Assembly: GCA_963765635.1 (NCBI GenBank)
Contig: CAVXXF010000002.1
Coordinates: forward strand, 210,363-274,362
Direction of reading: 5' to 3'
Origin: an uncultured Thermoleophilia bacterium
GTDB taxonomy: Bacteria > Actinomycetota > Thermoleophilia > UBA2241
DNA length: 64,000 bases
Shown: piece after piece, positions 5,091-22,448 of the stretch
How positions within the stretch are numbered: the first letter of the stretch is position 1
Layout of the letters: each line of letters opens with the position of its first letter
The notes under the pieces: generated by a model
What the model saw: only the letters and a program-made list of their open reading frames with translations
Told to the model about the DNA's origin: nothing
Databases searched by the model: none
Program-made: the position numbers and the translations under genes

Positions 5091-6249
5091 ATGGAAGTAG
5101 AGATCGGCCGCGGCAAGAAGGGTCGCCGCGCCTACGGCTTCGACGACATCGCCATCGTACCCAGTCGCCGTACGCGCGACGCGGAGGACGTCGACATCAC
5201 CTGGAAGCTCGGCCCGCACACGCTGCCGCTGCCGTGCCTCGCCTCCGCCATGGACGGCGTGGTCGACCCGCAATTCGCCGTCACCATGGGCAAGCTCGGC
5301 GGCCTCGCGGTGCTCAACCTCGAGGGCGTGCAGACGCGCTACGAGAACGCCGACGAGCAGCTCGACCGCATCGCTGCGCTGCCCAAGGAGTCGGCCACTC
5401 GCACAATGCAGGAGATCTACAAGGCGCCCATCAAGCCCGAGCTGGTCGGCCGGCGCATCAAGGAGATCAAGGCCGGCGGCGTCCTGGCCGCCGCCTCGCT
5501 CACCCCGCAACGCGTCGAGGACTTCTACCAGATCGCCCTCGAGGCCGGCCTCGACGTGCTGATCATCCAGGGCACCGTGGTCTCGGCCGAGCACGTGAGC
5601 ACCAGGGTCGAGCCCCTCGACCTGCGCAAGTTCATCGCCCAGTGCCCCGTGCCGGTGATCGTCGGCGGCGTGGCCAGCTACGCCACCACGCTGCACCTCA
5701 TGCGCACCGGCGCCGTGGGCGTGCTCGTGGGCGTCGGCCCCGGTCACGCCTGTACGACGCGCGGCGTGCTCGGCATCGGCGTGCCGCAGGCCACGGCCAT
5801 CGCCGACGCCGCGGCGGCGCGCGTGCAGCACGTGCTCGAGACGGGCCAGTACTGTCACGTCATCGCCGACGGCGGCATGCGCACCGGCGGCGACGTCAGC
5901 AAGGCCATCGCCCTCGGCGCCGACGCGGTCATGATCGGCTCGCCGCTGGCCGCGGCCAGCGAAGCGCCCGGCCGCGGCTACCACTGGGGCATGGCCACCT
6001 TCCACCCCGAGCTCCCGCGCGGCACGCGCGTGAAGGCCGGGGTCAAGGGTACCCTCGAAGAGATCCTCCTCGGCCCGGCCCACGAGAACGACGGCACGCT
6101 CAACCTGTTCGGCGCGCTTGCGCACGAGCATGGCCACCTGTGGCTACGAGACGCTGAGCTCGTTCCAGAAGGCCGAGGTCATGGTGGCGCCGTCGCTGAT
6201 GACCGAGGGCAAGAAGCTGCAGAAGGAGCAAGACGTCGGCATGGGCTGA
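5091..6249 (+). CDS. guaB3: GuaB3-type IMP dehydrogenase-family protein (IMPDH catalytic barrel without CBS insert), with an apparent +1 frameshift near 6117-6121
   Basis: N-terminus MEVEIGRGKKGRRAYGFDDIAIVPSRRTRDAEDVDI...GKLGGLAVLNLEGV is typical of GuaB3. After ...NLFGAL the track frame reads non-protein-like AHEHGHLWLRDAELV.... The +1 frame (own translation) gives the conserved family C-terminus LRTSMATCGYETLSSFQKAEVMVAPSLMTEGKKLQKEQDVGMG*, stop ~6247-6249. Sits immediately upstream of guaA, as in Actinobacteria. Confidence 0.8.
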
Positions 6250-6300: not shown

Positions 6301-7857
6301 GTGGCGCAGGGCTCGCCGCAAGTGAAGGGGTTCGACACCGTGCTCGTCCTCGACTTCGGGGCGCAGTACGGGCAGCTCATCGCGCGTCGCGTGCGCGAGT
6401 GCCGCGTGTACTCGGAGCTCGTGCCGCACGATATGCCCATCGAGCGCATCAAGGCCTACGCGCCCAAAGGCATCATCCTCTCCGGCGGTCCCATGAGCGT
6501 GTACGTCGACGATGCCCCGCAGCTCGACCCCGAGATCCTCGAGCTGGGCATCCCGGTGCTGGGCATCTGTTACGGCATGCAGAGCCTCGCCCTCCACCTC
6601 GGCGGCACGGTGGCGCGCACCGACCTCAGCGAGTTCGGCAAGACGGCGCTCAGCGTGCTCCAGCCGGGGCTGCTCCTCGAGGGACTGCGTGGCGAGGAGC
6701 AGGCCTGGATGAGCCACCGCGACAGCGTCACCAAGGCGCCGCCCGGCTTCGAGGTGCTGGCCGCGAGCGCGGCTTCGCCCGTCGCGGCCATGGAGGCGCG
6801 CTCGCGGGGCTTCTACGGCGTGCAGTTCCACCCCGAGGTGCTGCACACGCCCAAGGGCACCGAGGTGCTCAAGAACTTCCTCTACAAGGCCTGCGGCTGC
6901 GCCCCCGCGTTCACCCCGGCCTCCATCATCGAGGAGTCCATCAAGCAGATCCGCGCCCAGGTCGGCGACAACAAGGCGATCCTGGGGCTCTCCGGAGGCG
7001 TCGACTCGTCGGTCGCCGCGCTGCTCATGTACAAGGCCATCGGCGAGCGCCTCACCTGCGTGTTCGTCGACCAGGGCATGATGCGCATGCGCGAGGCCGA
7101 ACGTGTGGTCGAGACCTTCGCCGGCACGTTCGGCATCCCGCTCATCGCAGTCGACGCCAGCGACCGCTTTCTCGACAAGCTTGAGGGCGTCACCGAGCCG
7201 GAGCGCAAGCGCAAGATCATCGGCGAGGAGTTCATCCGCTGCTTCGAGGAGGAGGCGCGCAAGCTTGTCGACGCCAGGTTCCTCGTGCAGGGGACGCTCT
7301 ATAGCGACGTCATCGAGAGTGGCACGCGCCAGGCCGCCAAGATCAAGAGCCACCACAACGTGGGCGGCCTCCCCGAGAAGATGGATTTCGCGCTCGTCGA
7401 GCCGCTGCGCTGGCTGTTCAAGGACGAGGTCCGCGCCGTCGGCGAGGAGCTCGGCCTGCCCGAGCGCATCGTGTGGCGCCAGCCGTTCCCCGGGCCCGGG
7501 CTCGCCATCCGCATCATCGGCGAGATCACGCGCGAGCGCGTCGACATCCTGCAGCGCGCCGATGCCATCGTGCAGGAGGAGATCCGCACGGCCGGCCTCT
7601 ACCGCGAGCTATGGCAGTGCTTCGCCATCCTGCCCGTGATCCGCAGCGTGGGCGTGCAGGGCGACGAACGCACCTACGGCTACCCGATCGCCATCCGGGC
7701 GGTCAAGAGCGACGATGCCATGACCGCCGACTGGGCGCACCTGCCGTACGACCTCCTCGAGACGCTCTCCTCGCGCATCATCAACGAGGTGCCCGAGGTC
7801 AACCGCGTGGTCTACGACATCTCGAGCAAGCCGCCGAGCACCATCGAGTGGGAGTAG
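6301..7857 (+). CDS. guaA: GMP synthase (glutamine-hydrolysing)
   Basis: 518 aa. Class-I glutamine amidotransferase domain ([19 protein letters not shown]...GICYGMQ) plus ATP-pyrophosphatase domain (SGGVDSSV). Full-length, no disruption. Confidence 0.95.
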
Positions 7858-7938
7858 GGTAGACCCTCGCCCTTAGCTCGGCCTTTCGGCGGTATACTCG
7901 GAGAGCAGGCCGAGACGGTCCCCGACCGGAGGTGCAGT

Positions 7939-8617: not shown

Positions 8618-9400
8618 CTACAGCGTCCGCCCGTCGCCGCCGCCGCTTGGCTTCGGCTTCAGCTTGCCCGTCTCCGCGGCGTTGAGGTAGAGCACCACCA
8701 GCACGACGTCGGCGACGAAGAGGACGCTGCCCATGATCACGCACTGCACCAGCATCATGGGCAGGGCGCGAGCGACGCTCCCCGTGACGTTCTCGTCGAG
8801 CAGCTGCGTGGCGTAGATGCCGACGAGACTCACGGTCAGCAAGACCAGCGCCGAGGGTACCAGCGTTGCCTTCACCGTGCGCCACGAAAGGGCGACCGCC
8901 CGGAGCGGTCCCACATCGCCGATCACGATGATGTAGTCGGCGTACAGCACGACGAAGTTGAAGGCGAGCAGAGCGAGGAAGACCGCGTTGGCCGGCAGCG
9001 GGTCGTCGCCGGCGAGCACGACGGCGCCGGCGACGAGCGCGCCGACGACCTCCAATGCCAGCTGGAGGGCAAGGAGCCGCAGAAACTGGCGGCGGTCGGC
9101 GGGACCCAGGTGGAAGGTCCCTACCAGCGAGCGGATGTAGCCGGCGCGCAGCCACGTGCTCGCCAGCAGATACGCGACGAAGACCGCCGCGATGAGCGCG
9201 CTGCGCGCGGCGACGGCGTCGGCGAGCGGCCCACCACCGCGCAGCAACTCCGCGAGCGGCTCGCGCCGATACAGCCAGGCCGCGCCGAGGGCCACGGCGA
9301 GATCGAACGTGTACAGGCCGATGGCGAAGAAGACGATGTACTGCCTGGCGTGCAGGACGGCGGTCACCCGCTGGGGGAGCGTGTGACTCGTGCGATCCAT
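8618..9400 (-). CDS. Hypothetical integral membrane protein (about 6 predicted TM helices)
   Basis: 260-aa ORF on the minus strand. Strongly hydrophobic segments throughout; no catalytic motif recognised. Confidence 0.55.
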   Translation of the reverse strand: MDRTSHTLPQRVTAVLHARQYIVFFAIGLYTFDLAVALGAAWLYRREPLAELLRGGGPLADAVAARSALIAAVFVAYLLASTWLRAGYIRSLVGTFHLGPADRRQFLRLLALQLALEVVGALVAGAVVLAGDDPLPANAVFLALLAFNFVVLYADYIIVIGDVGPLRAVALSWRTVKATLVPSALVLLTVSLVGIYATQLLDENVTGSVARALPMMLVQCVIMGSVLFVADVVLVVLYLNAAETGKLKPKPSGGGDGRTL

Positions 9401-9473
9401 GGGGCGAGGGTATCATGGAGCCAGGAGATACCCACTCTGCCGCAGGCGACAGGCGGGAGGCGAAGTGAGGCCC

Positions 9474-9782
9474 ATGCAGGAAGTGCTCGACGAGCTGGTG
9501 AGGCGCATCGTCGCGGAGGTCGGCCCGCGGCGCGTCGTGTTATTCGGGTCGGCGGCGCGCGGCGACGCGCGGCCGGGCAGCGACATCGATCTCCTCATCG
9601 TGATGCCGGACGGCGCGCATCGCCGTCGGACTGCCCAGCATCTTTACGGGCGCCTGGGCAGCGACCGCCCCCCGGTCGACCTTCTCGTGGCCACCGAGTC
9701 CGACATCCTTGACCACGGCGACGAGCCAGGCTACGTCTACCTTACGGCACTACGCGAGGGGCGCGAGCACTACGCGGCCTGA
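9474..9782 (+). CDS. Nucleotidyltransferase-domain protein (MNT-like), second copy
   Basis: MQEVLDELVRRIVAEVGPRRVVLFGSAARGDARPGSDIDLLIVMPDG...VDLLVATESD. The G[SG]xARG and DxD signature of minimal NTases. Internal ATG at 9474 chosen over the track start at 9390. Confidence 0.75.
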   Translation: MQEVLDELVRRIVAEVGPRRVVLFGSAARGDARPGSDIDLLIVMPDGAHRRRTAQHLYGRLGSDRPPVDLLVATESDILDHGDEPGYVYLTALREGREHYAA

Positions 9783-10083
9783 GGCCGCCGCGCGCTGGCT
9801 CGCCTATGCCGAGAGCGATCTGGCCGTCGCGCGCGGCGTCGACCGGCCGGGAGTGATCGCCGAGACGCTCTGCTTCCATGCCCAGCAGGCGGCCGAGAAG
9901 GCGATCAAGGTAGTTCTGGTGGCCGCTGGCGTCGACCCTCAGAGGACCCACGATGTCGAGATGCTGCTTGCTGCTGTTCCCGGGGACGTATCGATGGGAT
10001 TCGACCGTCGATCACGCTCGCCTGGCTGTTCATCCTCGTCCCGGGGGCGTTCGCGGCTGGGTCGTCGTATCATGAGACCATGA
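9709..10083 (+). CDS. HEPN-domain protein, partner of the 9474 NTase; C-terminal ~35 aa may be out of frame
   Basis: WLAYAESDLAVARGVDRPGVIAETLCFHAQQAAEKAIKVVLVAAGVDPQRTHDVEMLL is a classic HEPN helix pair. Overlaps the NTase ORF by ~70 nt. The tail RRSRSPGCSSSSRGRSRLGRR looks like wrong-frame sequence. Confidence 0.6.
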   Translation: MTTATSQATSTLRHYARGASTTRPEAAARWLAYAESDLAVARGVDRPGVIAETLCFHAQQAAEKAIKVVLVAAGVDPQRTHDVEMLLAAVPGDVSMGFDRRSRSPGCSSSSRGRSRLGRRIMRP

Positions 10084-10805
10084 GATTCCCCCGCAGCCTG
10101 CTCGTCTTCCTCGCCCTCAGCTGGGTACTGGTGATGCTGTACCCGGATCCCGGCGTCCTGGTGCGGAGCGTGCGCAACACGTTGCGGCCGCGCGTGGAGC
10201 CGCAGGCCGCGGCCGCTCTGGCGCGCACCCTCCCCGACGATCCCCGGGCGATCGAAGCCTACGTGCTCGACCAGCAGGTGCCTTACGCCTACGACTGGCA
10301 GTCGGCCGGCGTGCCGTGGTACTTCCCCACGGCGAGCGAGGCGCTGCGCGCCGGCCGCGGCGACTGTGAGAGCCGCGCTATCGTGCTGGCGAGCCTCCTC
10401 ACGGCCAAGGGCATCCCCAATGAGCTGCGCATGAGCTTTGACCACATCTGGGTCGACTACCCCGGCAAGGTGGCCAACGCCATGGAGAACGCCGCCGTGC
10501 AGTTCGCCGGCCGGCAGGACGGCCGCTTCTTTCTCCACTGGCCGGCTGACTTTCACCTGAGGCAGGAGGTCGCCGACCAGGTGGCGATCCACTGGACGCC
10601 GGCGCCGCGGTGGAGGCTGCTGCTGCTCGCCCTGGGCCTCACCCTCATCCCGCTCTGGAACGTGCTTTCGCGGCGGCTCGCCGGCAGCGAACTCGCGATT
10701 CGAGAGGCGCGCGCCACCGACAGGGCGAAGAGCGCGCCGGGCCGTCTGCGCCGCCGGCACCGGGCGTATTCCGTCGCGGCCGTCTCAACCAGGAAGGTGA
10801 CATGA
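10080..10805 (+). CDS. Transglutaminase-like (Cys-protease core) domain membrane protein
   Basis: N-terminal TM helix. [22 protein letters not shown] matches the transglutaminase-like catalytic Cys motif. C-terminal TM helix. Confidence 0.6.
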
Positions 10806-11845
10806 AGACGATCGACCTGCGCAGCGACACCGTCACGCGTCCGTCGGCGGAGATGCGCCGCGCCATGTTCGAGGCCGAGGTCGGCGACGACGTGCTCGGC
10901 GACGACCCCACGGTGATCCGCCTGCAGGAGCACGCCGCCGGCCTGCTCGGCAAAGAGGCCGGCCTCTACTTCCCGTCGGGGACGATGTGCAACCAGGCGG
11001 CGGTGCGCGCGCTCACGCAGCGCGGCGACGAGGTCTTTCTGCACGCCCAGGCGCACATCATGTTCTACGAGCAGGGCGGGGCCTCGGCGCTGAGCAACGT
11101 GCAGCTGCGCTGCTTCGATTCGCCCGACGGGACGCTCGACCTCGAGAAGATGGAGGAGTACGTCCACACCGACGCCGACGTGCACTGGGCGCCCACCCGG
11201 ATGGTGTGCCTCGAGAACACGCACAACCACTGCGGCGGCCTCGTGCTGCCCCTCGAGCACGTGCGTGCCGTGCGCGAGCTCTGCGACCGGCACGATCTGA
11301 GGATGCACCTCGACGGCGCCCGGCTGTTCAACGCCGTGGCGGCCTCGGGCATCCCTGCCGCGGAGCACGCCGCTCCATTCGACACTGTCAGCATCTGCCT
11401 GTCGAAGGGCCTGGGCGCGCCGGTCGGCTCGATGCTCGTGGGGGACGCCGCCACCATCGCCCTGGCGCAGCGCGCCCGCAAGCTCTACGGCGGCGGCATG
11501 AGGCAGGCCGGCATCATCGCCGCGGCCGGCCTCTACGCGCTTCAGCACAACGTCGTGCGCCTCGCCGACGACCACCGGCGCGCGCGCGAGCTCGCGGAAC
11601 GGCTGGCCGCGCTGCCCGGTCTCGAGATCGACCTGGCCACGGTGCAGACCAACATGATCTTCGCCGGCACGCGGGGCACCGGGCTGCCGGCCGCCGACCT
11701 CGTGGTGCGTCTGGGCGAGGCCGGCGTGCTGTGCCTCGACGAAGGCCCGTGGACCGTGCGCTTCGTCACGCATCTCGATGTGGACGATGCTGACATCGAG
11801 CAGACGGCCGTCGCCGTCGAGCGCGAGCTGGCCGCGAAGGCCTGA
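10802..11845 (+). CDS. ltaE: Low-specificity L-threonine aldolase
   Basis: [38 protein letters not shown]...SGTMCNQAA...[15 protein letters not shown] Lys in the SKGLGAP context. ATGA overlap with the upstream gene. Confidence 0.85.
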
Positions 11846-12145
11846 CGGCCGCGCGGCCAATGCCGAGGTGCTGGCCGGCCTCACGCTGAGCCAGCTCACG
11901 CGGCTTGGGGCGGCGGTGATCTATGGAAGTTCGACCACGGCCATGGACCTGCGTCTGGCCTCCGCTTCGGTGGGCTCACCCGAGTGCGCCCTCATCAGCG
12001 CCGCCGCCGGCCAGATCGCGCGCTTCTACCTCCTGGCCGGTTGGGTGGCGGGTGCGTAGGGCGACGCCTACTGGGCGTGGGCTGACGAGCACGACGCGCA
12101 GCCGCCGGGGCTGCGGCTACGTCCTCAAGCAGCCACTCGCCGCCC

Positions 12146-12661
12146 TCAGAGCCGCAGCGAGAAGAGCACGACGTCCTCGCCGGTTCCGTGCACGTTTCGA
12201 GTCACGGGGACGCCATCCACGAGCTCGTCGCCGTCCTCCAAGGTGAAGCCGAGACGGCGATGAAACGCGATCGAGCGCGTGTTGAAGGCGCCGGTCTCAG
12301 CCACGACGACCGTTGCGCCGCGCCGTCGCACGACGGCCGAGAAGCGCTCGTAGAGCTCTCGCCCCAGGCTGAGGCCGCGGAAGTCGGGATGCACGCCCAT
12401 GAAATGCACGTAAGCCTGTCCGGCATGGCGTTGAGAGAGCATGCCGACCAGGAATGCGACCAACGCCCCGTCGTCTTCGACCACCAGGCAGGTGTCGCCG
12501 AAGTGCTCGAGGAAGAGGGGATGCACGAAATGTCGCAGGTGGCGGGCCCACCAGTCCTCGATCGCGGCGGCGATGGGATCTGCATCGGCCGCTGTGGCCG
12601 ACCGCCAGAGCAGGCCGTCGTGGCCTGACTGGCCCCCCGTCTGGATCGCTGCGCACATGGC
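12146..12661 (-). CDS. GNAT-family N-acetyltransferase
   Basis: Acetyl-CoA-binding segment VHPDFRGLSLGRELYERF and overall GNAT fold pattern. Internal ATG (MCAAIQTG...) preferred over the track's longer low-complexity N-terminus. Confidence 0.7.
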   Translation of the reverse strand, partial: AMCAAIQTGGQSGHDGLLWRSATAADADPIAAAIEDWWARHLRHFVHPLFLEHFGDTCLVVEDDGALVAFLVGMLSQRHAGQAYVHFMGVHPDFRGLSLGRELYERFSAVVRRRGATVVVAETGAFNTRSIAFHRRLGFTLEDGDELVDGVPVTRNVHGTGEDVVLFSLRL

Positions 12662-12968
12662 ACTCCTCACTGACCTCACAGTTCTAGCACAAACCACCGA
12701 GGTCGCGAATCCTGTCGGTGGGTCCATCGCGGGTGTCGAGGCGGACGTGCCCTCACTGTCGTACATTCGGCGTCCCCGAGCAGGGCTGGGAGTGTGCACT
12801 CCACTCGCCGATGGGGAGTGGTGTTGCCCGCAGAGGCTCCCGAAACCTCTGGCAAGTACCGGTGAGAACCTGAGTAGAGTTTTATTCGTCAGGAGCATGT
12901 CCGGTCAGTAAGTTGACAGTCAGGACATACGCCAGCTAGCATGCGGCCATCCGACTCAGGGGGACGAC

Positions 12969-13442
12969 GTGGACGCTCTCGACCGTCAGATACTCATCGC
13001 GTTGCAGCAGGACGGGAGCCTCACCAACGCCAGGCTGGCGCAGGCGCTCGGACTCTCGCAGTCGGCCATGTCCGAGCGCGTCAGGCGCCTCGAGCAGGAC
13101 GGCCACATCGCCGGCTATCGCGCCTTGGTCAACCCCACCAGTCTCGGGCTCGGCCTGCAGGCGTTCGTGGCCGCCGAGCTCGACCATCACAGCACCGAGA
13201 GCATCGAGTCCTTCGAGCACGGGGTCGTGAAGCTCCAGGCGGTGCGCGCCTGCTACCACGTGGCCGGCCGCTTCGACTACCTGCTCCACGTGGCCGTGCG
13301 CGACCTGGAGCACCTGGGTCATCTCATCAAGTACGACATCGCCGCGATCCCTGGAGTCGACAAGGTCGAGACCATGCTCGTGTACTCGGAGGTGAAGCCC
13401 GACGTGGGCTGGCCCGTTCATCCCGAGGGCCGGGAAGAGTGA
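12969..13442 (+). CDS. Lrp/AsnC-family transcriptional regulator
   Basis: 157 aa. N-terminal HTH (MDALDRQILIALQQDGSLTNARLAQALGLSQSAMSERVRRLEQDGHIAGYRA) plus C-terminal RAM/AsnC_C domain. Confidence 0.9.
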   Translation: MDALDRQILIALQQDGSLTNARLAQALGLSQSAMSERVRRLEQDGHIAGYRALVNPTSLGLGLQAFVAAELDHHSTESIESFEHGVVKLQAVRACYHVAGRFDYLLHVAVRDLEHLGHLIKYDIAAIPGVDKVETMLVYSEVKPDVGWPVHPEGREE

Positions 13443-13478
13443 GCGCCGCCGGCGCTGAGCCGGCGCAACTGCAGGACC

Positions 13479-14777
13479 ATGGAGGCAGGAGGACCGATGA
13501 CCACCCGAGACGCGATGCGCGCGCAGCTGCGCATCAAGCCCGCCGACCTGGAGGCCGTGAACGCGGTCCTCGCGGGCCCCGACAACGCTCTCGTGGACGG
13601 CCTCCTCGAGCTTGTCGAGAAGTACGGCGGCGTGGCGGAGATCAACCGCCGGGCCGACGAGGCGGGCCGCCTCGAGACCCGCCTTGCGCGCCTGCAGGAC
13701 GAGGCCTCCCCCTTCCTCTCCGGCCTCCACTGGCTCGCCGAGCAGCGCGACGCAGGCGCCTTCGTCTCGCTGCCCGAGTACCGGCGCAGCGTCCTCGGCC
13801 CTGAGGCCGACGCCATGACCGTCGACGAGCGCAACGCCGTGACCCTCGAGATCAGCGCCCTGCAGTACTTCCCCTGGCTGATCAGCGAGGCCGAGCAAGC
13901 CATCGAGCGCCGCGAGCTCATGCCGGGCCGCTACATCCGCGTGCGCACCATGGCCGAGCAGTGCGCCCCCGGCGAGGACGTCCTCGCCGTGGCCGCCGCC
14001 ATGCAGATCATCGGCGCCACGCACGTCGAGACCCTCGACACCAAGGGCATCGATGGCAGCAACGTCCACCTCGGCGGCCCCGCCACGATCACCGGCTACT
14101 TCGGCGGCATCGGCCAGCCCAACGACTACCCGCTCAAGTGGGCCGACGAGTACCTCGGCGTGCTCACGCAGTACGGAATCCGCCAGGTGCTCAACATCAA
14201 CAGCGGCACCATCCTCGTGGCCCTCCTGATGCACAAGCTGGGTATACGCAACGAGTTCAAAGTCTCGGTTTTCATGGGCGTCGACAACCCTTGGTCGGTG
14301 CTCTGGCTCCTGATTGGCGCCCGCCTGCTGGCGGCCGACGACGGCTCGACCAGCATGATCGGCCTCAATCTCTCCAACTCTGTCGAGTTGCCCACCCTGC
14401 TCGCCGCCGCCGAAGTGCGCCGCGGCCTGGGCTTTGACGGCGGCGTGCGTCTCGAGCACCACGTCACCGAGACCTGGAAGTCTATCGTGCGCCAGCCCTA
14501 CGACCGCCGCGGGGACGTGGTCGCCGCCGCGGCCACCGTGCCCAACATCTCCGCCAAGCACGAGGGCGGCGACCCGGAGACCGAGACGACCCGCGAGCAC
14601 CCCACCGACATCCTCGACTACTTCATCCCCAAGGAGCAGGTCATCGCCGACGGCCTCATGCCGCTGCTGGAACAGAACTACCTCGACAAGCACGCCGCCG
14701 TGAACCACACGGCCGCGGACCTCACCCGCGCCGGCATCGGAGTGCGCGCAGCCGCCCTGCTCCACGCACCGGCCTGA
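13479..14777 (+). CDS. Conserved hypothetical protein (432 aa), unknown function; sits between the Lrp regulator and the MttB-family gene
   Basis: Clean protein-like ORF with few Cys. No motif I can assign. The family was not identified. Confidence 0.55.
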   Translation: MEAGGPMTTRDAMRAQLRIKPADLEAVNAVLAGPDNALVDGLLELVEKYGGVAEINRRADEAGRLETRLARLQDEASPFLSGLHWLAEQRDAGAFVSLPEYRRSVLGPEADAMTVDERNAVTLEISALQYFPWLISEAEQAIERRELMPGRYIRVRTMAEQCAPGEDVLAVAAAMQIIGATHVETLDTKGIDGSNVHLGGPATITGYFGGIGQPNDYPLKWADEYLGVLTQYGIRQVLNINSGTILVALLMHKLGIRNEFKVSVFMGVDNPWSVLWLLIGARLLAADDGSTSMIGLNLSNSVELPTLLAAAEVRRGLGFDGGVRLEHHVTETWKSIVRQPYDRRGDVVAAAATVPNISAKHEGGDPETETTREHPTDILDYFIPKEQVIADGLMPLLEQNYLDKHAAVNHTAADLTRAGIGVRAAALLHAPA

Positions 14778-14873
14778 GGTTTCCCCCAGCGTTGCTGCCG
14801 CTCGAGGGGCGCAGAGGATGTATCATGACCCCCCCTGGGGCCGGAACCTGCCCGGCTGTCGACTACCTGAAGA

Positions 14874-16331
14874 GTGAAGGACAGTCTCGTGGACTGGAGT
14901 CTCACCTGCACGACCCCCGCCGAGCGGGACCTCGTGATCGAATCCGCCCTGGCGGTGCTCGAGCGCGTGGGTATGCGCATGATGGGGGCGACGCGCGCGC
15001 TCGACGCGCTGGCGAGCCTCGGCGCCGGGGTCGACGTGGCGACGGGGGTCGTGCGCCTGCCGCCGGAGATGGTGCACGCGGCCCTGGCCACGCTCCCGGA
15101 CCAGCTGTTCATCGCGGGCGCGGTCCCCGCGCGAGATGTCGTCCTCGACCGGCACAGCGGCCCCTTCTTCAATCCCTCGGGGTGTCACGCCAAGACCCTC
15201 GACTTCCGCACGGGGCGGCTGCGCCCGTCCAGCATCCAGGATCTCCGCGAGGGTACCGTCGTCATGGACGCCACCCCGGAGATCGACGTGATGTGGACGT
15301 TCGTGACGGCCAACGACGTGCCCCTCGAGCGGCGTGAGCTGGTGGAGTGCTACACGTATCTCGCGAACACCTCCAAGCCGCTGGTGCTCGTCGACTGCCC
15401 GACGGATGCCACCGACGTGCGGCGCATCATGGATGTCCTCGGCGGCGGCCTGGAGGGCTTCCGCCGCCGCCCGCGCCTCGGCGTGCTCTGCGCGGCGCGT
15501 GCGCCGCTCGCGGTCAACGGCGCCCTGCTGGACGTCACCTGCGAGCTGGCCGCTCTCGGCAGCCCCGTCTGGGCCTACTCGATGGCCATGGCGGGGGCGA
15601 CCGGTCCCATCACGGTCGCCGGCATGCTGAGCCTGATGTGGGCCGAGATCCTCGGCCTCGTCACGGCGGTCCAGGCGGTCGCCCCCGGCGCGGCCGTCCT
15701 GGCCTGTTGCGGCCCGGGGATCCTCGACATGCGCACCGGCAACATGTCCCTCGGCAGCCCCGAAAACACGCTCATGGGCGTTGCCTCGGTCGAGATCGGC
15801 CACCATCTGGGGTTGCCGGTCCACAACTCCGCCCTGTCGACGGACGCCCAGCATCCCGGCGTACAGGCCGGGTACGAGAAGGGCATGAAGGTCCTTCCCG
15901 CGGTGCTGGCGGGCGTCGATCTCATCAGCGGGGGTTTCGGCGCCCTGGCCTCGTCGAGCGTATGGCATCTGCCCATGGTGCCCATCGACGCCGAGGTGGC
16001 GGCTCTCGTGCGGCGCCTCGCCGCGGGAAGCCCCATACGCCCGGAGGACGTGATGCTCGACATCATCGAGCGCGTGGGGGTCGGCGGCAGCTATCTCAAG
16101 GAGCGGGTCACCCGCGAGCGCGTGCGCGCCCTCGAGCACTTCACGCCCACGATCGGCAGCCGGCTGCCGATCGAGCAGTGGGTCGCCGCGGGCAAGCAGG
16201 AGGTCGACGTGGCGCGCGAACGCGTGGAGCAGACCCTGGCCGCAGCGCCGGCCCGGGAGGGCGCCGCGGCGCTCATGGGGGAAGAGCAGTTGCGCGCGCT
16301 CGCCGACGTGTGCGGCGTCGGGGTCAGTTGA
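14874..16331 (+). CDS. MttB-superfamily (COG5598, trimethylamine methyltransferase-like) protein, non-pyrrolysine type; presumed quaternary-amine:corrinoid methyltransferase
   Basis: 485 aa. Family-typical length and TIM-barrel-like sequence pattern (LERVGMRM...LPDQLFIAGA...NTLMGVASVEIGHHLGLPVH...LISGGFGALASS). No in-frame amber codon. No corrinoid-protein gene (DxHxxG) seen nearby. Confidence 0.75.
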   Translation: MKDSLVDWSLTCTTPAERDLVIESALAVLERVGMRMMGATRALDALASLGAGVDVATGVVRLPPEMVHAALATLPDQLFIAGAVPARDVVLDRHSGPFFNPSGCHAKTLDFRTGRLRPSSIQDLREGTVVMDATPEIDVMWTFVTANDVPLERRELVECYTYLANTSKPLVLVDCPTDATDVRRIMDVLGGGLEGFRRRPRLGVLCAARAPLAVNGALLDVTCELAALGSPVWAYSMAMAGATGPITVAGMLSLMWAEILGLVTAVQAVAPGAAVLACCGPGILDMRTGNMSLGSPENTLMGVASVEIGHHLGLPVHNSALSTDAQHPGVQAGYEKGMKVLPAVLAGVDLISGGFGALASSSVWHLPMVPIDAEVAALVRRLAAGSPIRPEDVMLDIIERVGVGGSYLKERVTRERVRALEHFTPTIGSRLPIEQWVAAGKQEVDVARERVEQTLAAAPAREGAAALMGEEQLRALADVCGVGVS

Positions 16332-16392
16332 CGCGCGAGCGCTGACCCCTAGCGTTCCACCCAGGAGGACATCAGACCGAGAGGGAGGACCC

Positions 16393-17766
16393 ATGGCAGA
16401 TCTGCCGGAGACGCGTGAACACGAGGCGCTCGAGGAGGATTTCCTCGGCCACCTCTGGCCGCCGTTCACGCAGATGCAGGGCCTCAAGCCCGTGATCATG
16501 GACCACGCCGAGGGCGCGCTCGTCTACGACGCCGCCGGCAAGGCCTACATCGATGCCTTCGCCAGCCTGTGGACCGTCAACGTCGGCCACGGCCGCCAGG
16601 AGATCTTCGACGCCATCGCAGAGCAAGCGCAGAAGCTGGCGATCTACCACATCTTCCAGATCGCCAACGAGCCCTCCATCAAGCTCGCCGCCAAGGTCGC
16701 GGAGCACATGCCCGGCGACCTCAACCACGTCTTCTTCACACTCGGCGGCGGCGAGTCCGTGGAGACCGCCGTCAAGATGGCGCGCCAGTACTGGCGCAAC
16801 AAGGGCATGGGCACCAAGTACATGATCATGTTCCGCGACCGCTCCTACCACGGCACCACGATGACCAGCACGAGCGCCCAGGGCCTCTCCATGAACCGCG
16901 CCAAGTTCGAGCCCCTGCTGCCCGGGTTCATCAAGCTCGGCGCGCCCTACTGCTACCGCTGCTTCTGGGGCAAGACCTACGGCGAGGACTGCAAGATGGA
17001 GTGCGCCCGGCAGGTCGAGCAGGAGATCGCCTTCTACGGTCCCGAGAACGTTGGCACCATGCTCGGCGAGACGATGATCGGCACCGGCGGCGTGATCCCC
17101 CCGCCGCCCGAGTACTGGCCGATGGTCAACGAGATCTGCAAGGCGAGCGACGTGCTCGTGATCAACGACGAGGTGATCACCGGCTTCGGCCGCGCCGGCA
17201 CCTGGTTCGGCTTCGAGCAGTTCGGTTCCGACCCCGACCTCATCACCCTCGCCAAGGGCCTCTCTTCCGGCTACCTGCCGCTCGGCGCCGTGGGCGCCCG
17301 CGACCACGTCTTCGAGGCCTTCCTCGGCGACCCCGGCAGGACCTTCATGAGCGGCGCCACCTACAACGGGCACCCGCTCTGCTCGGCGGCCGGCATCGCC
17401 AACCTCGAGATCATCGAGCGCGAGCACCTCGTGGAGCGCTGCGCCGAGCTGGGCCCCTACCTCCAGGACGGCCTCGCGACGCTACTTGCGCACCCCATCG
17501 TCGGCGACGTGCGCGGCGTGGGCCTCGTGGCCGGGGTCGAGTTCGTCAAGGACAAGGAGACGCGCGAGTGGTTCGCCGCGGCACAGGGCGTGGCCGCCAA
17601 GGTCCGCGACGAGGCCTTCGCCCGCGGCGTCTTCGTACGCCTCCTCGGCGGCGGCCACGTGCTTGCCGTGGCGCCGCCGTTCATCATCAGCAAAGCGCAG
17701 ATCGACACTGTCGTGGCCGTCCTCGACGAAGCCATCGCCGTCGTCGAGCAGGAGCTCGGTCACTAG
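16393..17766 (+). CDS. Class-III PLP aminotransferase (omega-amino acid / GABA:pyruvate transaminase-like)
   Basis: 457 aa. Class-III signatures (VINDEVITGFGRAGTWFGFEQFG; GLSSGYLPLGAV). Complete. Confidence 0.85.
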   Translation: MADLPETREHEALEEDFLGHLWPPFTQMQGLKPVIMDHAEGALVYDAAGKAYIDAFASLWTVNVGHGRQEIFDAIAEQAQKLAIYHIFQIANEPSIKLAAKVAEHMPGDLNHVFFTLGGGESVETAVKMARQYWRNKGMGTKYMIMFRDRSYHGTTMTSTSAQGLSMNRAKFEPLLPGFIKLGAPYCYRCFWGKTYGEDCKMECARQVEQEIAFYGPENVGTMLGETMIGTGGVIPPPPEYWPMVNEICKASDVLVINDEVITGFGRAGTWFGFEQFGSDPDLITLAKGLSSGYLPLGAVGARDHVFEAFLGDPGRTFMSGATYNGHPLCSAAGIANLEIIEREHLVERCAELGPYLQDGLATLLAHPIVGDVRGVGLVAGVEFVKDKETREWFAAAQGVAAKVRDEAFARGVFVRLLGGGHVLAVAPPFIISKAQIDTVVAVLDEAIAVVEQELGH

Positions 17767-17846
17767 CGTAGGTACCGGCTGCGTACGCAGAAGAGGGCGG
17801 GCGGGGTGACCGTTCTGGTCGCCCCGCCCGCCCTCTTCGTGCGCGT

Positions 17847-19073
17847 CTACTTCTTGACGGGAGCCTTCTTGGCCGGCGCCTTCTTCTCCTTGACCGGCTC
17901 GGTCCCCGGCTTGACGGCCATGTTGCGGTAGACCTGCTCCATGTCCTCGGCAGTGAACTTGCGCGGGTTGTTGTTCCACAGGCGGGCCTGCGTAAGGGCG
18001 CCCTTGACGAGGTCGGGGATCGCCGACTCGGGGATGCCCACCTCGTTGAGGTACTGCGGCACCTCGAGGTCCTCGGCCAGCGTGCGCAGGGCCTGCAGCG
18101 TGACCTCGCAACCCTCGCGATCGCTGAGGCCTTCCATGTTCTCGCCCATGAACTCGCCGATCTCGCGGAAGAACTGCGGGCAGGCGAGCATGTTGTACTC
18201 CATGACCCACGGCAGCATGAGCGTGTTGGCGATGCCGTGCGGCACATGGAACATGCCGCCCACGGGGTAGCTCATGGCGTGCACGGCGCCCACACCGGCG
18301 TTGCCGAAGGAGATGCCGCCGAGCAGCGAGCCGATGGCCATGTTGTGGCGCGCCCAGGCGTTGCTGCCGTCGAACACCGCCGTGCGGATGCTCTTGCTGA
18401 CGAGCTTGATGCCTTCAGCGGCGAGCGGGTCGGTGTGCATCGTGGCGTTCACCGAGATGTAGGCCTCGATGTTGTGGATCAGGGCGTCCATGCCGCTGGC
18501 GGCGGTGACGCCCGCCGGGCAGCTGTAGGTGAGCACGGGGTCGACGAGAGCGATGTTGGGGATGAGGTGCGGGCTCACGACGCCCTGCTTCACGTTCAGC
18601 TTCTCGTTGCTGAAGATGGCGATGGCCGTGACTTCGGTGCCGGTGCCGGCGGTGGTGGGCACGGCGATGAAGGGCAGACCCTTGTGGGGTACCTGGTCGA
18701 TACCGACGTAGTCCTCGAGACGGTCGTCGTTGGGCGCGAGCACGGCGACCACCTTGGCGACATCGATGGCCGAGCCGCCGCCGAAGCCGACGATGAGGTC
18801 GTACTTGCCTTCTTTGGCGATATCGACGATCTCGTGCACGCTGCCCATGGGCGGCTCGGGGACGGCCTTGTCGTAGATGCCGACGTCCATGCCCGCCTCG
18901 CGCAGCGGGGCCTCCACGCTTTCCACGGTGCCGCAGCAGGCCACGCCGGGGTCGGTGATGATGAGCACCTTCTTGGCGTGCAGCTTCTTGGCCTCGGCGC
19001 CGATCTGGGCGACGCAGCCGTTGCCTGTGATTAGCGTCTTGGGCGCTCTGTGCACGCGGATCTTGGTATCCAT
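17847..19073 (-). CDS. Iron-containing (group III) alcohol dehydrogenase, contextually a 4-hydroxybutyrate dehydrogenase; unusual Lys/Ala/Pro-rich C-terminal tail
   Basis: 408 aa. GGGS nucleotide motif (GFGGGSAIDVAK) and Fe-binding His cluster (GAVHAMSYPVGGMFHVPHG). Tail ...KPGTEPVKEKKAPAKKAPVKK. Confidence 0.8.
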   Translation of the reverse strand: MDTKIRVHRAPKTLITGNGCVAQIGAEAKKLHAKKVLIITDPGVACCGTVESVEAPLREAGMDVGIYDKAVPEPPMGSVHEIVDIAKEGKYDLIVGFGGGSAIDVAKVVAVLAPNDDRLEDYVGIDQVPHKGLPFIAVPTTAGTGTEVTAIAIFSNEKLNVKQGVVSPHLIPNIALVDPVLTYSCPAGVTAASGMDALIHNIEAYISVNATMHTDPLAAEGIKLVSKSIRTAVFDGSNAWARHNMAIGSLLGGISFGNAGVGAVHAMSYPVGGMFHVPHGIANTLMLPWVMEYNMLACPQFFREIGEFMGENMEGLSDREGCEVTLQALRTLAEDLEVPQYLNEVGIPESAIPDLVKGALTQARLWNNNPRKFTAEDMEQVYRNMAVKPGTEPVKEKKAPAKKAPVKK

Positions 19074-19098
19074 GACTTCTTTCTCCTCCGTTGGACGG

Positions 19099-20409
19099 CT
19101 AGCGCGCGAGGCGGCCGGGGCCGTAGACGCCGGCCGCCTCCTCGCGGATCTGGTCTCTGAATGCTGGGTCGGCGATCTCGATGAGCGCTTCGGCGCGTTC
19201 GCGCAGGCCCATGCCGCGCAGGTGCGCGACGCCGTGCTCTGTGACGATGTAGTCGACGTCGGCGCGCATGGTGGTCACCGCCGTGCCGGGGCTGAGGGCG
19301 GCGACGATGCGCGACACGGCGCCCTTCTTCGCCGTGGACGGCAAGGCGATGATCGCCTTGCCGTCGCGGCTGCGGGCGGCGCCGCGCACGAAATCGACCT
19401 GCCCGCCGATGCCGGTGAACTGCACGGCGCCCATGGTGTCGGCCACCACCTGACCCTGCAGGTCGACCTGGATCGCCGAGTTGATGGCCACCACGCGGTC
19501 GTTCTGACCGATGAGATACGGGTCGTTGATGATGTTCACGGGGAACATGTTGACGGCGGGGTTGTCGTCGACGAAGTCGTACAGGCGGCGAGTGCCCATG
19601 AGGAAGGTCGCCGCCATCTTGTCGCGGTTGATGGTCTTGTTGCGGTTGGTGATGACGCCCTCGTTGTAGAGGTCGACGACGCCCTCGCTGAACATCTCGC
19701 TGTGGATGCCGAGGTCGTTCTTCTCGTGCAGAAAGAGGAGCACCGCGTCGGGGATGCCGCCGATGCCGAGCTGCAGGCAGGAGCCGTCCTCCACGAGGCC
19801 GGCGATGTGCTTGCCGATGGCCTCCTCGACGGGGCCGATGCGCGGCGGCTGCAGTTCGATGATCGCCTGCTCGCTCTCGACGACGAAGTCGATCTCGCTG
19901 ACATGGATGAACGAATCGCCGTGGGTGCGCGGCATGTTGGGGTTCACTTGGGCGACGACGGTCTTGGCGACCTGGGCGGCCGGCTTCGTGTAGTCCACCG
20001 AGACGCCGAAGGAGCAGAAGCCGTGCTTGTCGGGCGGCGACACATGGATGAGCACCACGTCGGGCGGCAGGTAGCCCTCGCAGAACAGCTTGGGGATCTC
20101 GTGGAAGAACACCGGGATGTAGTCGCCGCGCCCGTCCTTGACCGCCTCCCGCGAGGAGGCGCCGACGAACAGCGACTTGTGGAAGAAGGAGTCGGCGAAC
20201 TCGGGCTGGCAGTACTCGCCCTTGCCCATGGCGACCATGTGGTTGATCTCGACGCGCTCCAGATCGGCGGCCCGCGCCACGAGCGCGTCGACCAGCTCGA
20301 GGGGTTCGCCGCAGGCGTGCGCGAACACCACGCGGTCGCCCGACTTCACGCAGTCCATCGCCACGGCGGGGGAGACCCGTTTGCGATCGTAGTCCGACTT
20401 CCACTCCAT
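19099..20409 (-). CDS. abfT: 4-hydroxybutyrate CoA-transferase (acetyl-CoA hydrolase/transferase family)
   Basis: Start taken at internal MEWKSDYDRKRVSPAVAMDC. The track ORF has a Ser/Pro-rich extension. Family pattern throughout (GIGGIPDAV...; ...TEHGVAHLRG). Confidence 0.8.
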   Translation of the reverse strand: MEWKSDYDRKRVSPAVAMDCVKSGDRVVFAHACGEPLELVDALVARAADLERVEINHMVAMGKGEYCQPEFADSFFHKSLFVGASSREAVKDGRGDYIPVFFHEIPKLFCEGYLPPDVVLIHVSPPDKHGFCSFGVSVDYTKPAAQVAKTVVAQVNPNMPRTHGDSFIHVSEIDFVVESEQAIIELQPPRIGPVEEAIGKHIAGLVEDGSCLQLGIGGIPDAVLLFLHEKNDLGIHSEMFSEGVVDLYNEGVITNRNKTINRDKMAATFLMGTRRLYDFVDDNPAVNMFPVNIINDPYLIGQNDRVVAINSAIQVDLQGQVVADTMGAVQFTGIGGQVDFVRGAARSRDGKAIIALPSTAKKGAVSRIVAALSPGTAVTTMRADVDYIVTEHGVAHLRGMGLRERAEALIEIADPAFRDQIREEAAGVYGPGRLAR

Positions 20410-20413
20410 GCGC

Positions 20414-20671
20414 TTACTCCTTGAGCTTTCGCGTGACCGTGGGCGCGAGCTCGGCGGCCGGCGTGGGGACGCCGTCGACGAGCTCGCCGGCGACGACCAC
20501 GGTACCGGGGTCGTCGCTGACGAGCAGGTGGTCTGAGGCGCAGGCGCGAGGGCAGCCATTGACGTGCACGGTGACTCCCGGATCTACACCAGGGTCCTCG
20601 GCGAGCAGTTCGCCGGCCACGGCGGTACGGTCGATGTGGGGGTTGCAGCCCCCGCAGTACACGACCTTCAC
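20414..20671 (-). CDS. Small 85-aa four-cysteine protein (CxxC...CxxxC), thioredoxin-like or metal-binding; translationally coupled to abfD
   Basis: Own translation: MKVVYCGGCNPHIDRTAVAGELLAEDPGVDPGVTVHVNGCPRACASDHLLVSDDPGTVVVAGELVDGVPTPAAELAPTVTRKLKE. The GTG start overlaps the abfD TGA (GTGA). Stop is 4 nt before the abfT ATG. In the track this DNA is hidden inside the junk ORF 20414..21364. Confidence 0.55.
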   Translation of the reverse strand: MKVVYCGGCNPHIDRTAVAGELLAEDPGVDPGVTVHVNGCPRACASDHLLVSDDPGTVVVAGELVDGVPTPAAELAPTVTRKLKE

Positions 20672-22167
20672 GCGTCGGCTACCGCCGTGGGGGCCTTGAC
20701 CTTGCCCTTGTCCCACGGTTTGCCCACGCCGGCCAGCGCCTTGGCCAGATCCTTCTTGTGATCGATGTTGGACTGGCGCGCGATCATGATGCGCTGCGCC
20801 TGCGGTGAGCCCGCGCCGTGCATGCTCTCGGTGCGGTAGCCGACGGCCGCGGTGCCCAGCGTGAGGTTTTCGACGAGGCGCAGGATGCGCATGCGGTCGA
20901 TGGTCGGCGTGTCGCACTGCCCCACGAGATACTTCTCGACGATGGGGCCGAGCTTTTCGTCGGCGAGGTCGTGAGCCGACGGCATGGTGACCATGAGGCC
21001 GCCGGCGATGTCCTCGGCGAGGCGCGCGATCTCGTAGGGGAAGCGCGTGACGTTCTGCTTGCACACGTTGGCCAGCAGCATGTCGATCTGGAAGTTGCCG
21101 GCCGGCATCTTGACGCCCTCGTAGGAGCAGGCGAGCCCGCACGAGAACAAGGTCTCGTTGAGATGCGTCATCTCGATGAGCTTGTCCTTGATGTGGCTGG
21201 CCCTGGCGGCGCCGTTCATGTCGGCGGCTGTGGCGGCGGCGCCGATGAGCACGTCGCCGACGCCGACCTTGCAGCCGCCGTAGCTCTGGCGGTGGAAGCC
21301 GGCGAAGCGCTCGACGAGCGCTCCGGAGAACTCGATCTCGCCGCACAGGTACACCCTGTCCCACGGCACGAACACGTCGTCGAACACCATCAGTGCCTCT
21401 TGCCCGCCGAACTGGGCGTTGCCCACGTCGAGGTCGTTGCCCTCGAGCTTGCGCGTGTCGCAGCTCTGGCGGCCGTAGATGTAGTACACGCCCTCGGCGT
21501 TGGCCGGGCAGCTGAAGCTCACGGCGTAGTCCTCGTCGCCTTCGCGCATGGCGACCGTGGGCATGACGATGATCTCGTGAGAGTTGCAGGCGCCCGTCTG
21601 GTGCGCCTTGGCGCCGCGCACCACGATGCCGTCATCGCGCTTGTCGACGATGTGCAGGTACATGTCGGGGTCGGGCTGCTGGTGGGGCGCCAGGCCGCGA
21701 TCCCCCTTGGGATCGGTCATGGCGCCGTCGGCCACGAGGTCGTTGTCCTGCAGGTACTGGACGTACTTCTTGAAGCGCTCGTGGTACTGCGTGCCTCGCG
21801 CCTTGTCCGTCTCGTAGGTCACGGAGTACAGGGCGTTGATGGCATCCATGCCCACGCAGCGCTGGAAGCACGAGCCTGTCTTCTGGCCCAGCAGGCGCTG
21901 CATCTTGACCTTCTTGCTGAGGTCGTCGGTGGACTGGTGGATGTGGGTGAAGCGGTTGACCTTCTTGCCCGTGAGGTGGCTGGTGGCCAGCATGAGGTCT
22001 TCGTACTCGGGCAGAGCCGCCAGCTCGTAGGTCATGGCGATGCAGTTGATGCTGGGGCGGATCACGGGGTGGTCCACGTAGTCGTCGATCTGCTCGCCGA
22101 ACATGTAGATCTTCAGGTGCAGGTCGGCGATGCTCTGGCGGAACTCCTCGGGCGTCTTGAGAGCCAT
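20668..22167 (-). CDS. abfD: 4-hydroxybutyryl-CoA dehydratase / vinylacetyl-CoA delta-isomerase
   Basis: 500 aa from MALKTPEEFRQSIADLHLKIYMFGEQIDDYVDHPV.... Characteristic Cys/His [4Fe-4S]-FAD enzyme pattern (CFQRCVGMD; HQTGACNSHE; C..C). Confidence 0.85.
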   Translation of the reverse strand: MALKTPEEFRQSIADLHLKIYMFGEQIDDYVDHPVIRPSINCIAMTYELAALPEYEDLMLATSHLTGKKVNRFTHIHQSTDDLSKKVKMQRLLGQKTGSCFQRCVGMDAINALYSVTYETDKARGTQYHERFKKYVQYLQDNDLVADGAMTDPKGDRGLAPHQQPDPDMYLHIVDKRDDGIVVRGAKAHQTGACNSHEIIVMPTVAMREGDEDYAVSFSCPANAEGVYYIYGRQSCDTRKLEGNDLDVGNAQFGGQEALMVFDDVFVPWDRVYLCGEIEFSGALVERFAGFHRQSYGGCKVGVGDVLIGAAATAADMNGAARASHIKDKLIEMTHLNETLFSCGLACSYEGVKMPAGNFQIDMLLANVCKQNVTRFPYEIARLAEDIAGGLMVTMPSAHDLADEKLGPIVEKYLVGQCDTPTIDRMRILRLVENLTLGTAAVGYRTESMHGAGSPQAQRIMIARQSNIDHKKDLAKALAGVGKPWDKGKVKAPTAVADA

Positions 22168-22419: not shown

Positions 22420-22448
22420 GCCCAGCGGGCAAGTTTGGCCCGCTGGGC
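22420..22448. promoter_or_regulatory. Perfect 11-bp inverted repeat (gcccagcgggc-N7-gcccgctgggc), about 100 nt upstream of gdhA; a CCAATTGG palindrome lies just upstream at ~22406-22413
   Basis: Read directly from the sequence in the divergent abfD/gdhA intergenic region. Confidence 0.35.

Follow-up and report, generated by a model that had tools for sequence, protein, structure and literature searches.

The stretch of DNA considered here (the window) comprises 64,000 nucleotides (nt) from an uncultured Thermoleophilia bacterium (GenBank assembly GCA_963765635.1, contig CAVXXF010000002.1, positions 210,363 to 274,362 of the forward strand), and positions are counted from its first nucleotide. 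On its plus strand, an uninterrupted open reading frame (ORF) of 432 amino acids at 13479-14777, which includes the peptide GGPATITGYFGGIGQPNDYPLKWADEYLG quoted in an earlier note on this DNA, lies between an Lrp/AsnC-family regulator gene (12969-13442) and a gene of the MttB methyltransferase superfamily (14874-16331), as that note had described. The product represents a new family that is widespread and unusually conserved, and its unexpected partner across genomes is a distinct clade of PanB proteins.

The local DNA is 68% G+C, and long chance ORFs arise in such DNA. We nevertheless regard 13479-14777 as a gene rather than a chance ORF because of its codon-position G+C (0.71/0.44/0.94 at positions 1/2/3), which resembles that of the adjoining Lrp and MttB genes; because more than 8,000 clusters at 90% identity match it in a set of 5.8 billion proteins; and because genomes of 44-47% G+C, in which ORFs this long are not expected by chance, encode relatives as well (loci L033, L063, and L044). 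The ORF is a real and very strongly conserved gene, and the clean full-length frame reported in the earlier note is confirmed, with a correction to its start. The true start is probably ATG 13497 (MTTRDA..., 426 amino acids) and not 13479, since a GGAGG-rich ribosome-binding sequence, GGAGGCAGGAGG, lies just 5' of that codon and most close homologs, themselves 425-428 amino acids long, start at the equivalent methionine, from which residues are numbered here. With 1 cysteine in 426 amino acids, the protein is indeed as poor in this residue as had been remarked. An antisense ORF of 609 amino acids (12936-14765, minus strand) spans the gene with the mirror-image codon-position G+C (0.93/0.43/0.71); it is a shadow of the true gene, and an ORF caller could annotate it wrongly.

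No model in Pfam, NCBIfam, or PHROGs matches the protein or its most distant relatives. In Pfam, no family was found at E values up to 0.01 for the protein itself, and none at E values up to 1 for nine relatives, save chance or fusion matches. Neither the single sequence nor the family profile drew anything but noise from the PDB sequences (E values up to 10), and a HMMER scan of 1.84 billion representatives returned family members only. The source names that were checked all read "hypothetical protein," except for one automatic Joint Genome Institute label, "DNA-binding phage protein," and literature searches found no description of the family. The family is an orphan and new to description, with a fold that is itself ordinary, and for annotation the window protein can serve as its founding member; the term "unrecognized family" was well chosen, and no confident match to a well-known unrelated family turned up in the Pfam, NCBIfam, PHROGs, and PDB sequence searches.

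The best 120 of the more than 8,000 matches are 73-90% identical to the window protein and come mostly from Thermoleophilia metagenome-assembled genomes (MAGs), and a scan of one genome per species gave at least 582 confirmed relatives at 59-89% identity. A 50%-identity library scanned with HMMER yielded 455 clusters, mostly fragments; four representatives that look full-length (P0124, P0126, P0208, and P0231) are frameshifted chimeras from high-G+C contigs that match the family over part of their length, and they were dropped because they would corrupt alignments. Among the matches listed are Thermoleophilia, Desulfobacterales and other Thermodesulfobacteriota, Anaerolineae, Ardenticatenia, Spirochaetales, a Clostridiales MAG, "Candidatus Vecturithrix," and a few Alphaproteobacteria, and further members occur in Calothrix and Prochloraceae MAGs and in a Euryarchaeota MAG, the carriers amounting to hundreds of species in at least eight phyla, archaea included. 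One carrier is cultured, Polaromonas sp. P1-6, whose copy (UUZ66483.1, 52.7% identity) is encoded on a 564-kb plasmid (CP087967.1), and a small clade of relatives stands at 40% identity. An identity of 52-60% is kept between distant phyla, including an archaeon, over a patchy distribution, which indicates strong constraint combined with horizontal spread. A 385-amino-acid homolog (L091, 8001-9158; 46% identity), in which a portion of the N-terminal domain is missing, is encoded on a 41-kb contig of VirSorter category 3, where many small genes without a Pfam match surround it; this copy may be phage-borne, and no match to it was found in the GenBank phage collection.

Of two AlphaFold models, the first, built from 32 close homologs, is unreliable in the most conserved loop, and the second, for which 73 sequences with identities as low as 39% were used, is confident (predicted local distance difference test score of 94.9 and predicted TM score of 0.92). 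In the second model, seven helices over approximately residues 1 to 105 are followed by eight strands alternating with helices, with a long helix and then the last strand in the C-terminal part. The modeled fold is a (β/α)8 triosephosphate isomerase (TIM) barrel, its eight alternating parallel strands closing into a barrel. Some 50 residues, mostly polar or glycine, are invariant; those conserved in all 73 sequences, from many phyla, include E118, S120, R145, R150, N189, H191, G200, G204, G206, N209, E218, K255, S257, D263, N264, N291, S295, R308, R318, E320, H322, Q333, P334, R338, K354, H355, and E356. Many of them, placed by their sequence position in the predicted strands, fall at or just past barrel strand ends. 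TIM-barrel active sites sit at the C-terminal ends of the strands, and as modeled the invariant set looks like an active site, its several arginines together with Glu, Asp, His, Lys, and Asn suggesting an anionic substrate and acid-base or metal catalysis. Given a modeled TIM barrel with such dense invariant polar residues, the proposal that the protein is a candidate novel enzyme is plausible. A nonenzymatic role, in binding, scaffolding, or regulation (for example, as a ligand sensor acting with the AsnC regulator), would fit the tight link to a regulator gene and the lack of an assignable catalytic motif, but we find it hardly credible: a set of invariant residues with many members at strand ends is typical of active sites, the identity retained between bacterial phyla and in archaea speaks for constraint by catalysis, and translation of the gene is coupled to that of a gene for an enzyme.

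Foldseek searches with the first model gave weak matches, which included, at E values of 0.016-0.05, several methylenetetrahydrofolate reductase (MTHFR) chains, one BHMT chain, and one glutamate mutase chain; the amidohydrolase-2 lactone isomerase 4mup was also among the weak matches. The nearest generic metal-dependent (β/α)8 barrels are class II fructose-bisphosphate aldolase, the xylose-isomerase-like TIM enzymes (PF01261, typified by an AP_endonuc_2 match and a Glu/Asp/His/Glu metal site), BKACE/Kce, and the HMGL-like carboxyltransferase domains, all of which act on 2-oxo or hydroxy-carbonyl compounds. With MTHFR and other TIM-barrel oxidoreductases linked to flavin adenine dinucleotide (FAD), the protein shares the barrel, the weak matches to Escherichia coli MetF (TM scores of 0.41-0.50), and a genomic link to methylene-tetrahydrofolate-using enzymes; judged by a Pfam match (PF02219) and an FAD-binding barrel, it is not an MTHFR. 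Profile comparison with BKACE (PF05853) by hhalign was negative. In the signature of the amidohydrolase superfamily, HxH closes strand 1, a His is found at each of strands 5 and 6, and an Asp marks strand 8; here, strand 1 ends in E-I-S, and strands 5, 6, and 8 carry K-x-S, N-x-S-N-S, and K-H-E, respectively. The stretch ETLDTKGxDG resembles the DTTLRDG of DRE-TIM metallolyases, but it lies at strand 3 and not strand 1, and there is no HxH. A pyridoxal phosphate enzyme of fold type III, considered because of the Gly-rich loop, was set aside in view of the lack of a Lys at strand 1 and of structural matches.

To compare gene neighborhoods, we used 84 nonredundant loci, 66 of which have at least 3 kb of upstream sequence. 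Orthologs of the window's Lrp regulator, 41-89% identical, adjoin the barrel gene in other genomes, and an AsnC/Lrp gene lies near it in 31 of the 66 loci, either co-directional just upstream or divergent, the divergent pairs sharing 230-280 bp of intergenic DNA. The earlier suggestion that the gene is under Lrp control is plausible from this conserved adjacency, the regulation itself being something we infer.

The commonest partner is PanB, encoded just upstream on the same strand in 42-45 of the 84 loci (33 of the 66 with enough upstream sequence). The pairs come from at least five phyla and include those of Thermoleophilia, Desulfobacterales, Chloroflexota, Spirochaetales, and Clostridia; in L006, the PanB and barrel reading frames share 4 nt, and in L098 they form a two-gene pair that no gene of related function flanks. 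The operon PanB passes the NCBI equivalog cutoff of TIGR00222 (302 versus 207.55 bits), and what we take to be the catalytic residues of E. coli PanB (D45, S46, D84, K112, E114, and E181) are kept, by eye, in one operon PanB. Across phyla, the operon PanBs share a mean identity of 72.8% with one another and about 41% with E. coli PanB, and the pairwise divergence among them follows that among their barrel genes (correlation, r = 0.73). Diverging in step, and with the PanBs forming a tight clade, the two genes make up a co-inherited module. The barrel protein is not itself a member of the PanB/isocitrate lyase-PEP mutase superfamily (hhalign probability of at most 0.4% for family profile A3 against 30-odd operon PanBs), and apparent PanB-barrel fusions, seen as long ORFs at high-G+C loci, arise from upstream read-through of the frame. 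In a Vecturithrix-like genome (L060), PanB and the barrel gene are separated by an unusual stretch of about 1 kb that is filled by three copies of the Acido-Lenti-1 RNA motif (7080-7903; 45-56 bits versus a gathering score of 37).

So tight a pairing, present in L098 without related flanking genes, raises the question of whether the protein is a nonorthologous replacement in pantothenate/coenzyme A (CoA) synthesis, serving 2-dehydropantoate reduction, beta-alanine formation, or the joining of pantoate and beta-alanine. The protein holds the slot just after PanB where panE often sits, and several unrelated proteins are known to fill the ketopantoate reductase step (PanE/ApbA, with IlvC and PanG as alternatives). 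CoaE is encoded just downstream in L060 and L063, an archaeal PPS_PS gene lies 7 kb away in L095, the archaeal copies have a housekeeping-like context, and PanC, PanD, and PanE are absent from the 25 most frequent neighbor families. We nonetheless consider such a replacement improbable. Unlike the ketopantoate reductases, the protein has no Rossmann fold and no match to the ApbA and ApbA_C domains (PF02558 and PF08546), nor does it have an evident nucleotide-binding motif, and an ApbA/PanE-family gene (Calothrix) or a HIBADH-like reductase gene (L060) already stands alongside it. The paired PanB belongs to a horizontally spreading, unusually conserved clade and is not a vertical housekeeping gene; the pair has links to genes for AsnC regulators, aminotransferases, transporters, and catabolism; and many Thermoleophilia, the window included, keep the barrel gene without an adjacent PanB.

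A second upstream partner, found mainly in the Thermoleophilia that lack an adjacent PanB, is a GcvT-SHMT fusion of about 900 amino acids. Its gene precedes the barrel gene by 1.4-4.7 kb, on the same strand, in 10 of the 66 loci, one of them deltaproteobacterial, and it often sits beside genes for glycerate kinase, an aminotransferase, and a 2-hydroxyacid dehydrogenase (possibly a hydroxypyruvate reductase). Of the 66 loci, 42 have PanB or GcvT-SHMT no more than 5 kb upstream, and both enzymes use 5,10-methylene-tetrahydrofolate. Glycine riboswitches head the GcvT-SHMT gene strings of L001 (1208-5313) and L002 (3750-7881); in scans that covered 20 loci besides the window, 21 sources in all, no tetrahydrofolate, ZTP, or other riboswitch was found directly 5' of the barrel gene or of the PanB-barrel pairs. 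The shared cofactor of these partners could mean that the protein is a folate-dependent one-carbon enzyme, either a noncanonical methylene- or methyl-tetrahydrofolate oxidoreductase or one that makes, recycles, or delivers methylene-tetrahydrofolate for PanB and SHMT. The riboswitch-headed strings, the FolC genes that follow at a distance of two to three genes in L060 and L063, the MttB neighbors (which feed methyl groups toward folate), and the weak structural matches to MTHFR, BHMT, and glutamate mutase all agree with such a role, which we judge unlikely.

The MttB gene of the window has no in-frame stop, and no pyrrolysine insertion sequence (PYLIS) element occurs anywhere in the window, so that it is a nonpyrrolysine member of its superfamily. 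The earlier note had put the barrel protein forward as a candidate component of this methyltransferase system and had suggested that the two genes are co-transcribed. Co-transcription is possible in the window, where the gaps are short (54 nt between the Lrp and barrel genes and 97 nt between the barrel and MttB genes), no terminator-like site was found within 12600-17900, and a promoter-like site precedes the Lrp gene; the latter is a consensus match only, one of two sigma-70-like sites in that interval versus 0.3 expected from shuffles. The pairing itself is not conserved. When co-occurrence with MttB-family genes, a check that the note had named, was scored over the 84 loci, MttB lay within 1.5 kb of the barrel gene in 2 (the window and L006) and within about 6 kb in 5 (these two, L030, L041, and L044), and it accounted for 1 of the 130 genes in the two positions downstream.

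In favor of a role as the substrate-binding, corrinoid-handling, or methyl-accepting partner of MttB, one could cite the close spacing in the window, the lack of a corrinoid protein among the window genes scanned (which leaves its MttB without an obvious partner there), and the MttB genes within about 6 kb at four other loci, two of them with PYLIS elements. Like the known partners, MttC/MtgC (the corrinoid protein) and MtgA (the methylcorrinoid:tetrahydrofolate methyltransferase), the barrel gene adjoins an MttB gene and may share its transcript in the window. In contrast to them, the barrel protein has no B12-binding (PF02310/PF02607) or pterin-binding (PF00809) domain in a Pfam scan, and its adjacency to MttB is not conserved. 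The 5 loci of 84 may reflect chance if, as we assume, these lineages have many MttB paralogs per genome, and no MttB gene is present in 12- to 25-kb stretches of the cyanobacterial, Polaromonas, and archaeal loci. A partnership with MttB is thus very improbable, and we reject the reading of the protein as an MttB accessory: MttB is a neighbor and not a conserved partner, and nothing marks the barrel protein as the missing partner of the window's MttB. As for the PYLIS elements themselves, one (4220-5686 in L006, a Thermoleophilia MAG) bridges the interruption between two neighboring ORFs, each with a match to MTTB, and one lies at 5518-5617 (minus strand) in L044, a deltaproteobacterial MAG, which suggests that both carry pyrrolysine-type trimethylamine methyltransferase genes.

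Beyond these partners, the 130 downstream genes are heterogeneous, with enzymes that interconvert 2-oxo and 2-amino acids the commonest: class I/II aminotransferases account for 9 and CBS-domain Glu/Leu/Phe/Val-type dehydrogenases for 5, and BKACE accounts for 8. The Calothrix locus encodes a thiamine diphosphate enzyme, ApbA, an amino-acid dehydrogenase, a dihydrodipicolinate synthase (DHDPS)-like aldolase, and the barrel protein. The Vecturithrix-like loci (L060 and L063) encode AsnC, a HIBADH-like reductase, PanB, the barrel protein, an amino-acid dehydrogenase, CoaE, and FolC, and loci of the 40%-identity clade encode a branched-chain amino acid-type ABC transporter, the barrel protein, an IlvD/Edd dehydratase, a metallo-beta-lactamase-fold protein, and Dak1/Dak2. 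The Polaromonas locus has a gene for a sigma-54 activator between the barrel gene, which an SDR gene accompanies, and an operon for an FAD-linked oxidase, a DHDPS-like protein, a TRAP transporter, Ldh_2, an iron-containing alcohol dehydrogenase (Fe-ADH), and a succinate-semialdehyde-type dehydrogenase. On that plasmid (L099, CP087967.1), two one-mismatch sigma-54 promoter-like sites (10108-10123, minus strand, and 11917-11932, plus strand) flank the activator gene, one facing the barrel gene and the other the oxidase/aldehyde dehydrogenase operon; the total number of such matches is not above chance. AbfD-like dehydratases are encoded upstream of the barrel gene in L068, L075, and L085, and one is also encoded in the window.

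In the window, the string that the Lrp gene heads ends with a class III aminotransferase gene, and a minus-strand set of Fe-ADH, CoA-transferase, and HpaB/AbfD-family genes comes next, followed on the plus strand by genes for glutamate dehydrogenase and a PII protein (whole block, 17847-24282; Table 1). Together with the aminotransferase, this block looks like a fermentation module for 4-aminobutyrate (GABA) or 4-hydroxybutyrate, and the minus-strand set can be likened, by family assignments alone, to the GABA/4-hydroxybutyrate route of Clostridium aminobutyricum. Going by such assignments, the barrel gene of the window adjoins genes for 4-hydroxy-acid, amino-group, and one-carbon enzymes, as it does elsewhere.

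Table 1. Features of the window at and around the barrel gene
Feature	Position	Strand	Basis or remark
Beta-eliminating lyase/threonine aldolase-type gene	10796-11845		Upstream of the barrel gene
Candidate sigma-70-like promoter, TTGACA-18 nt-TAGCAT	12913-12942	+	10/12 consensus matches; 5' of the Lrp gene
Lrp/AsnC-family regulator, 157 amino acids	12969-13442	+	HTH_AsnC-type, E = 5e-15; AsnC_trans_reg, E = 9e-19
GGAGG-rich ribosome-binding sequence	13481-13492	+	Read from the sequence; precedes ATG 13497, within the ORF as first drawn
Barrel gene, 426-amino-acid protein of undescribed family	13497-14777	+	Predicted N-terminal helical domain (~1-105) and (β/α)8 barrel; maximal ORF from 13479
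MttB-superfamily methyltransferase homolog	14874-16331	+	PF06253, E = 6e-63; TIGR02369, 286 bits versus cutoff of 525
Class III (omega/GABA/beta-alanine type) aminotransferase	16393-17766	+	PF00202, E = 4e-88; best NCBIfam models below cutoffs; last gene of the string
Fe-ADH	17847-19073	-	Family assignment
Acetyl-CoA hydrolase/transferase-family CoA-transferase	19099-20559	-	Family assignment
HpaB/AbfD-family protein	20668-22182	-	Family assignment

The recurrence of Fe-ADH, 4-hydroxybutyrate-type CoA-transferase, AbfD-like dehydratase, and succinate-semialdehyde dehydrogenase genes nearby also invites the idea of a hydrolase or isomerase of a 4-hydroxy-acid lactone or amide that would feed a reverse PanB reaction and 4-hydroxy-acid modules; candidates are a pantolactone, ketopantoyl-lactone, gamma-butyrolactone, or homoserine lactone hydrolase and the orphan pantothenase. 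Genes for beta-lactamase-fold esterases or amidases lie 3' of the barrel gene in L006, L009, and L022, a barrel rich in His, Glu, Lys, and Asp is compatible with a metal hydrolase, and the weak match to 4mup involves a lactone isomerase. Set against this, the alignment has no amidohydrolase HxH at strand 1, the structural similarity is generic, and the idea is built on gene context alone, so that we hold it to be decidedly improbable.

We tentatively propose, with a confidence that stays somewhat short of even, that the barrel protein is an enzyme under amino-acid-responsive control that acts on a small anionic acid at the metabolic node joining 2-oxoisovalerate, 2-dehydropantoate, or 4-hydroxy-2-oxo acids with methylene-tetrahydrofolate; the 2-oxo- and 4-hydroxy-acid enzymes that recur around its gene support this placement. 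Expression would be governed by the adjacent Lrp/AsnC-type regulator, presumably one that senses amino acids, and the functional partner would be the specialized, co-inherited PanB clade or, in many Thermoleophilia, the GcvT-SHMT fusion. The invariant arginines would bind the acid, and chemistry would take place at a Glu/Asp/His/Lys center at the C-terminal strand ends, probably with a divalent metal. The substrate may belong to the interconversion of 2-oxoisovalerate and 2-dehydropantoate, or may be another 4-hydroxy-2-oxo acid or its 2-amino or 2-hydroxy derivative, so that the protein would catalyze the step that either precedes or follows hydroxymethyl transfer. In the window, where PanB is absent, the protein, encoded in a string headed by the Lrp gene, probably serves the same hydroxy- or oxo-acid chemistry.

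Several observations weigh against this proposal. PanB, GcvT-SHMT, and AsnC are all missing from the vicinity of the gene in about one-third of the loci, and the window itself has no PanB; the neighbors beyond PanB and AsnC are mixed (BKACE, membrane iron-sulfur proteins, and ABC binding proteins), and with such heterogeneity the proposed substrate class is a synthesis of weak signals. The archaeal copies are solitary among housekeeping genes, and the residue pattern fits none of the known TIM-barrel catalytic signatures that were tested; catalytic activity, substrate class, and metal dependence are properties that we infer. A folate-directed role would explain the linkage to PanB and GcvT-SHMT equally well, and the alternatives weighed above overlap in part with our proposal.

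A bolder version, which we think rather unlikely, is that the barrel protein and its co-inherited PanB make up a mobile two-enzyme module of undescribed chemistry, in which the barrel would be a new catalytic type. Such a module might run hydroxymethyl transfer in reverse, passing the one-carbon unit of a 4-hydroxy-2-oxo acid (pantoate-, pantolactone-, or homoserine-derived) onto tetrahydrofolate, or it might constitute a natural PanB-based route of one-carbon assimilation.

Elsewhere in the window, an M-box (magnesium) riboswitch (2536-2705, minus strand; 150 bits) lies directly 5' of an MgtE-type gene (1200-2492, minus strand), and overlapping genes for an NTP_transf_2 small nucleotidyltransferase and a HEPN-domain protein (9390-10083, plus strand) have the MNT-HEPN toxin-antitoxin arrangement. 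Two adjacent proteins of about 530 amino acids with Big_13/TIG immunoglobulin-like domains (27918-31190, plus strand) are atypical for the genome, the first with G+C contents of 0.53/0.54 at codon positions 1/2, and a large block of glycosyltransferase and O-antigen-ligase genes follows the pair.

Taken as a whole, the family is a genuine conserved unknown, spread over hundreds of species and at least eight phyla without a family, a name, or a solved relative, and a tempting misannotation, "MttB accessory protein," is corrected. That its gene is so tightly tied to a separate clade of PanB and to GcvT-SHMT fusions points to unrecognized chemistry at the junction of branched-chain 2-oxo acids, pantoate, and folate one-carbon units, an area that still has orphan activities and missing genes. 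With the PanB/AsnC module defined, Polaromonas sp. P1-6 (UUZ66483.1) offers a cultured carrier in which the function is testable, and if the two-enzyme reading of the module is true, the protein would add a new type of catalysis to the TIM-barrel enzymes and might fill an orphan Enzyme Commission activity.

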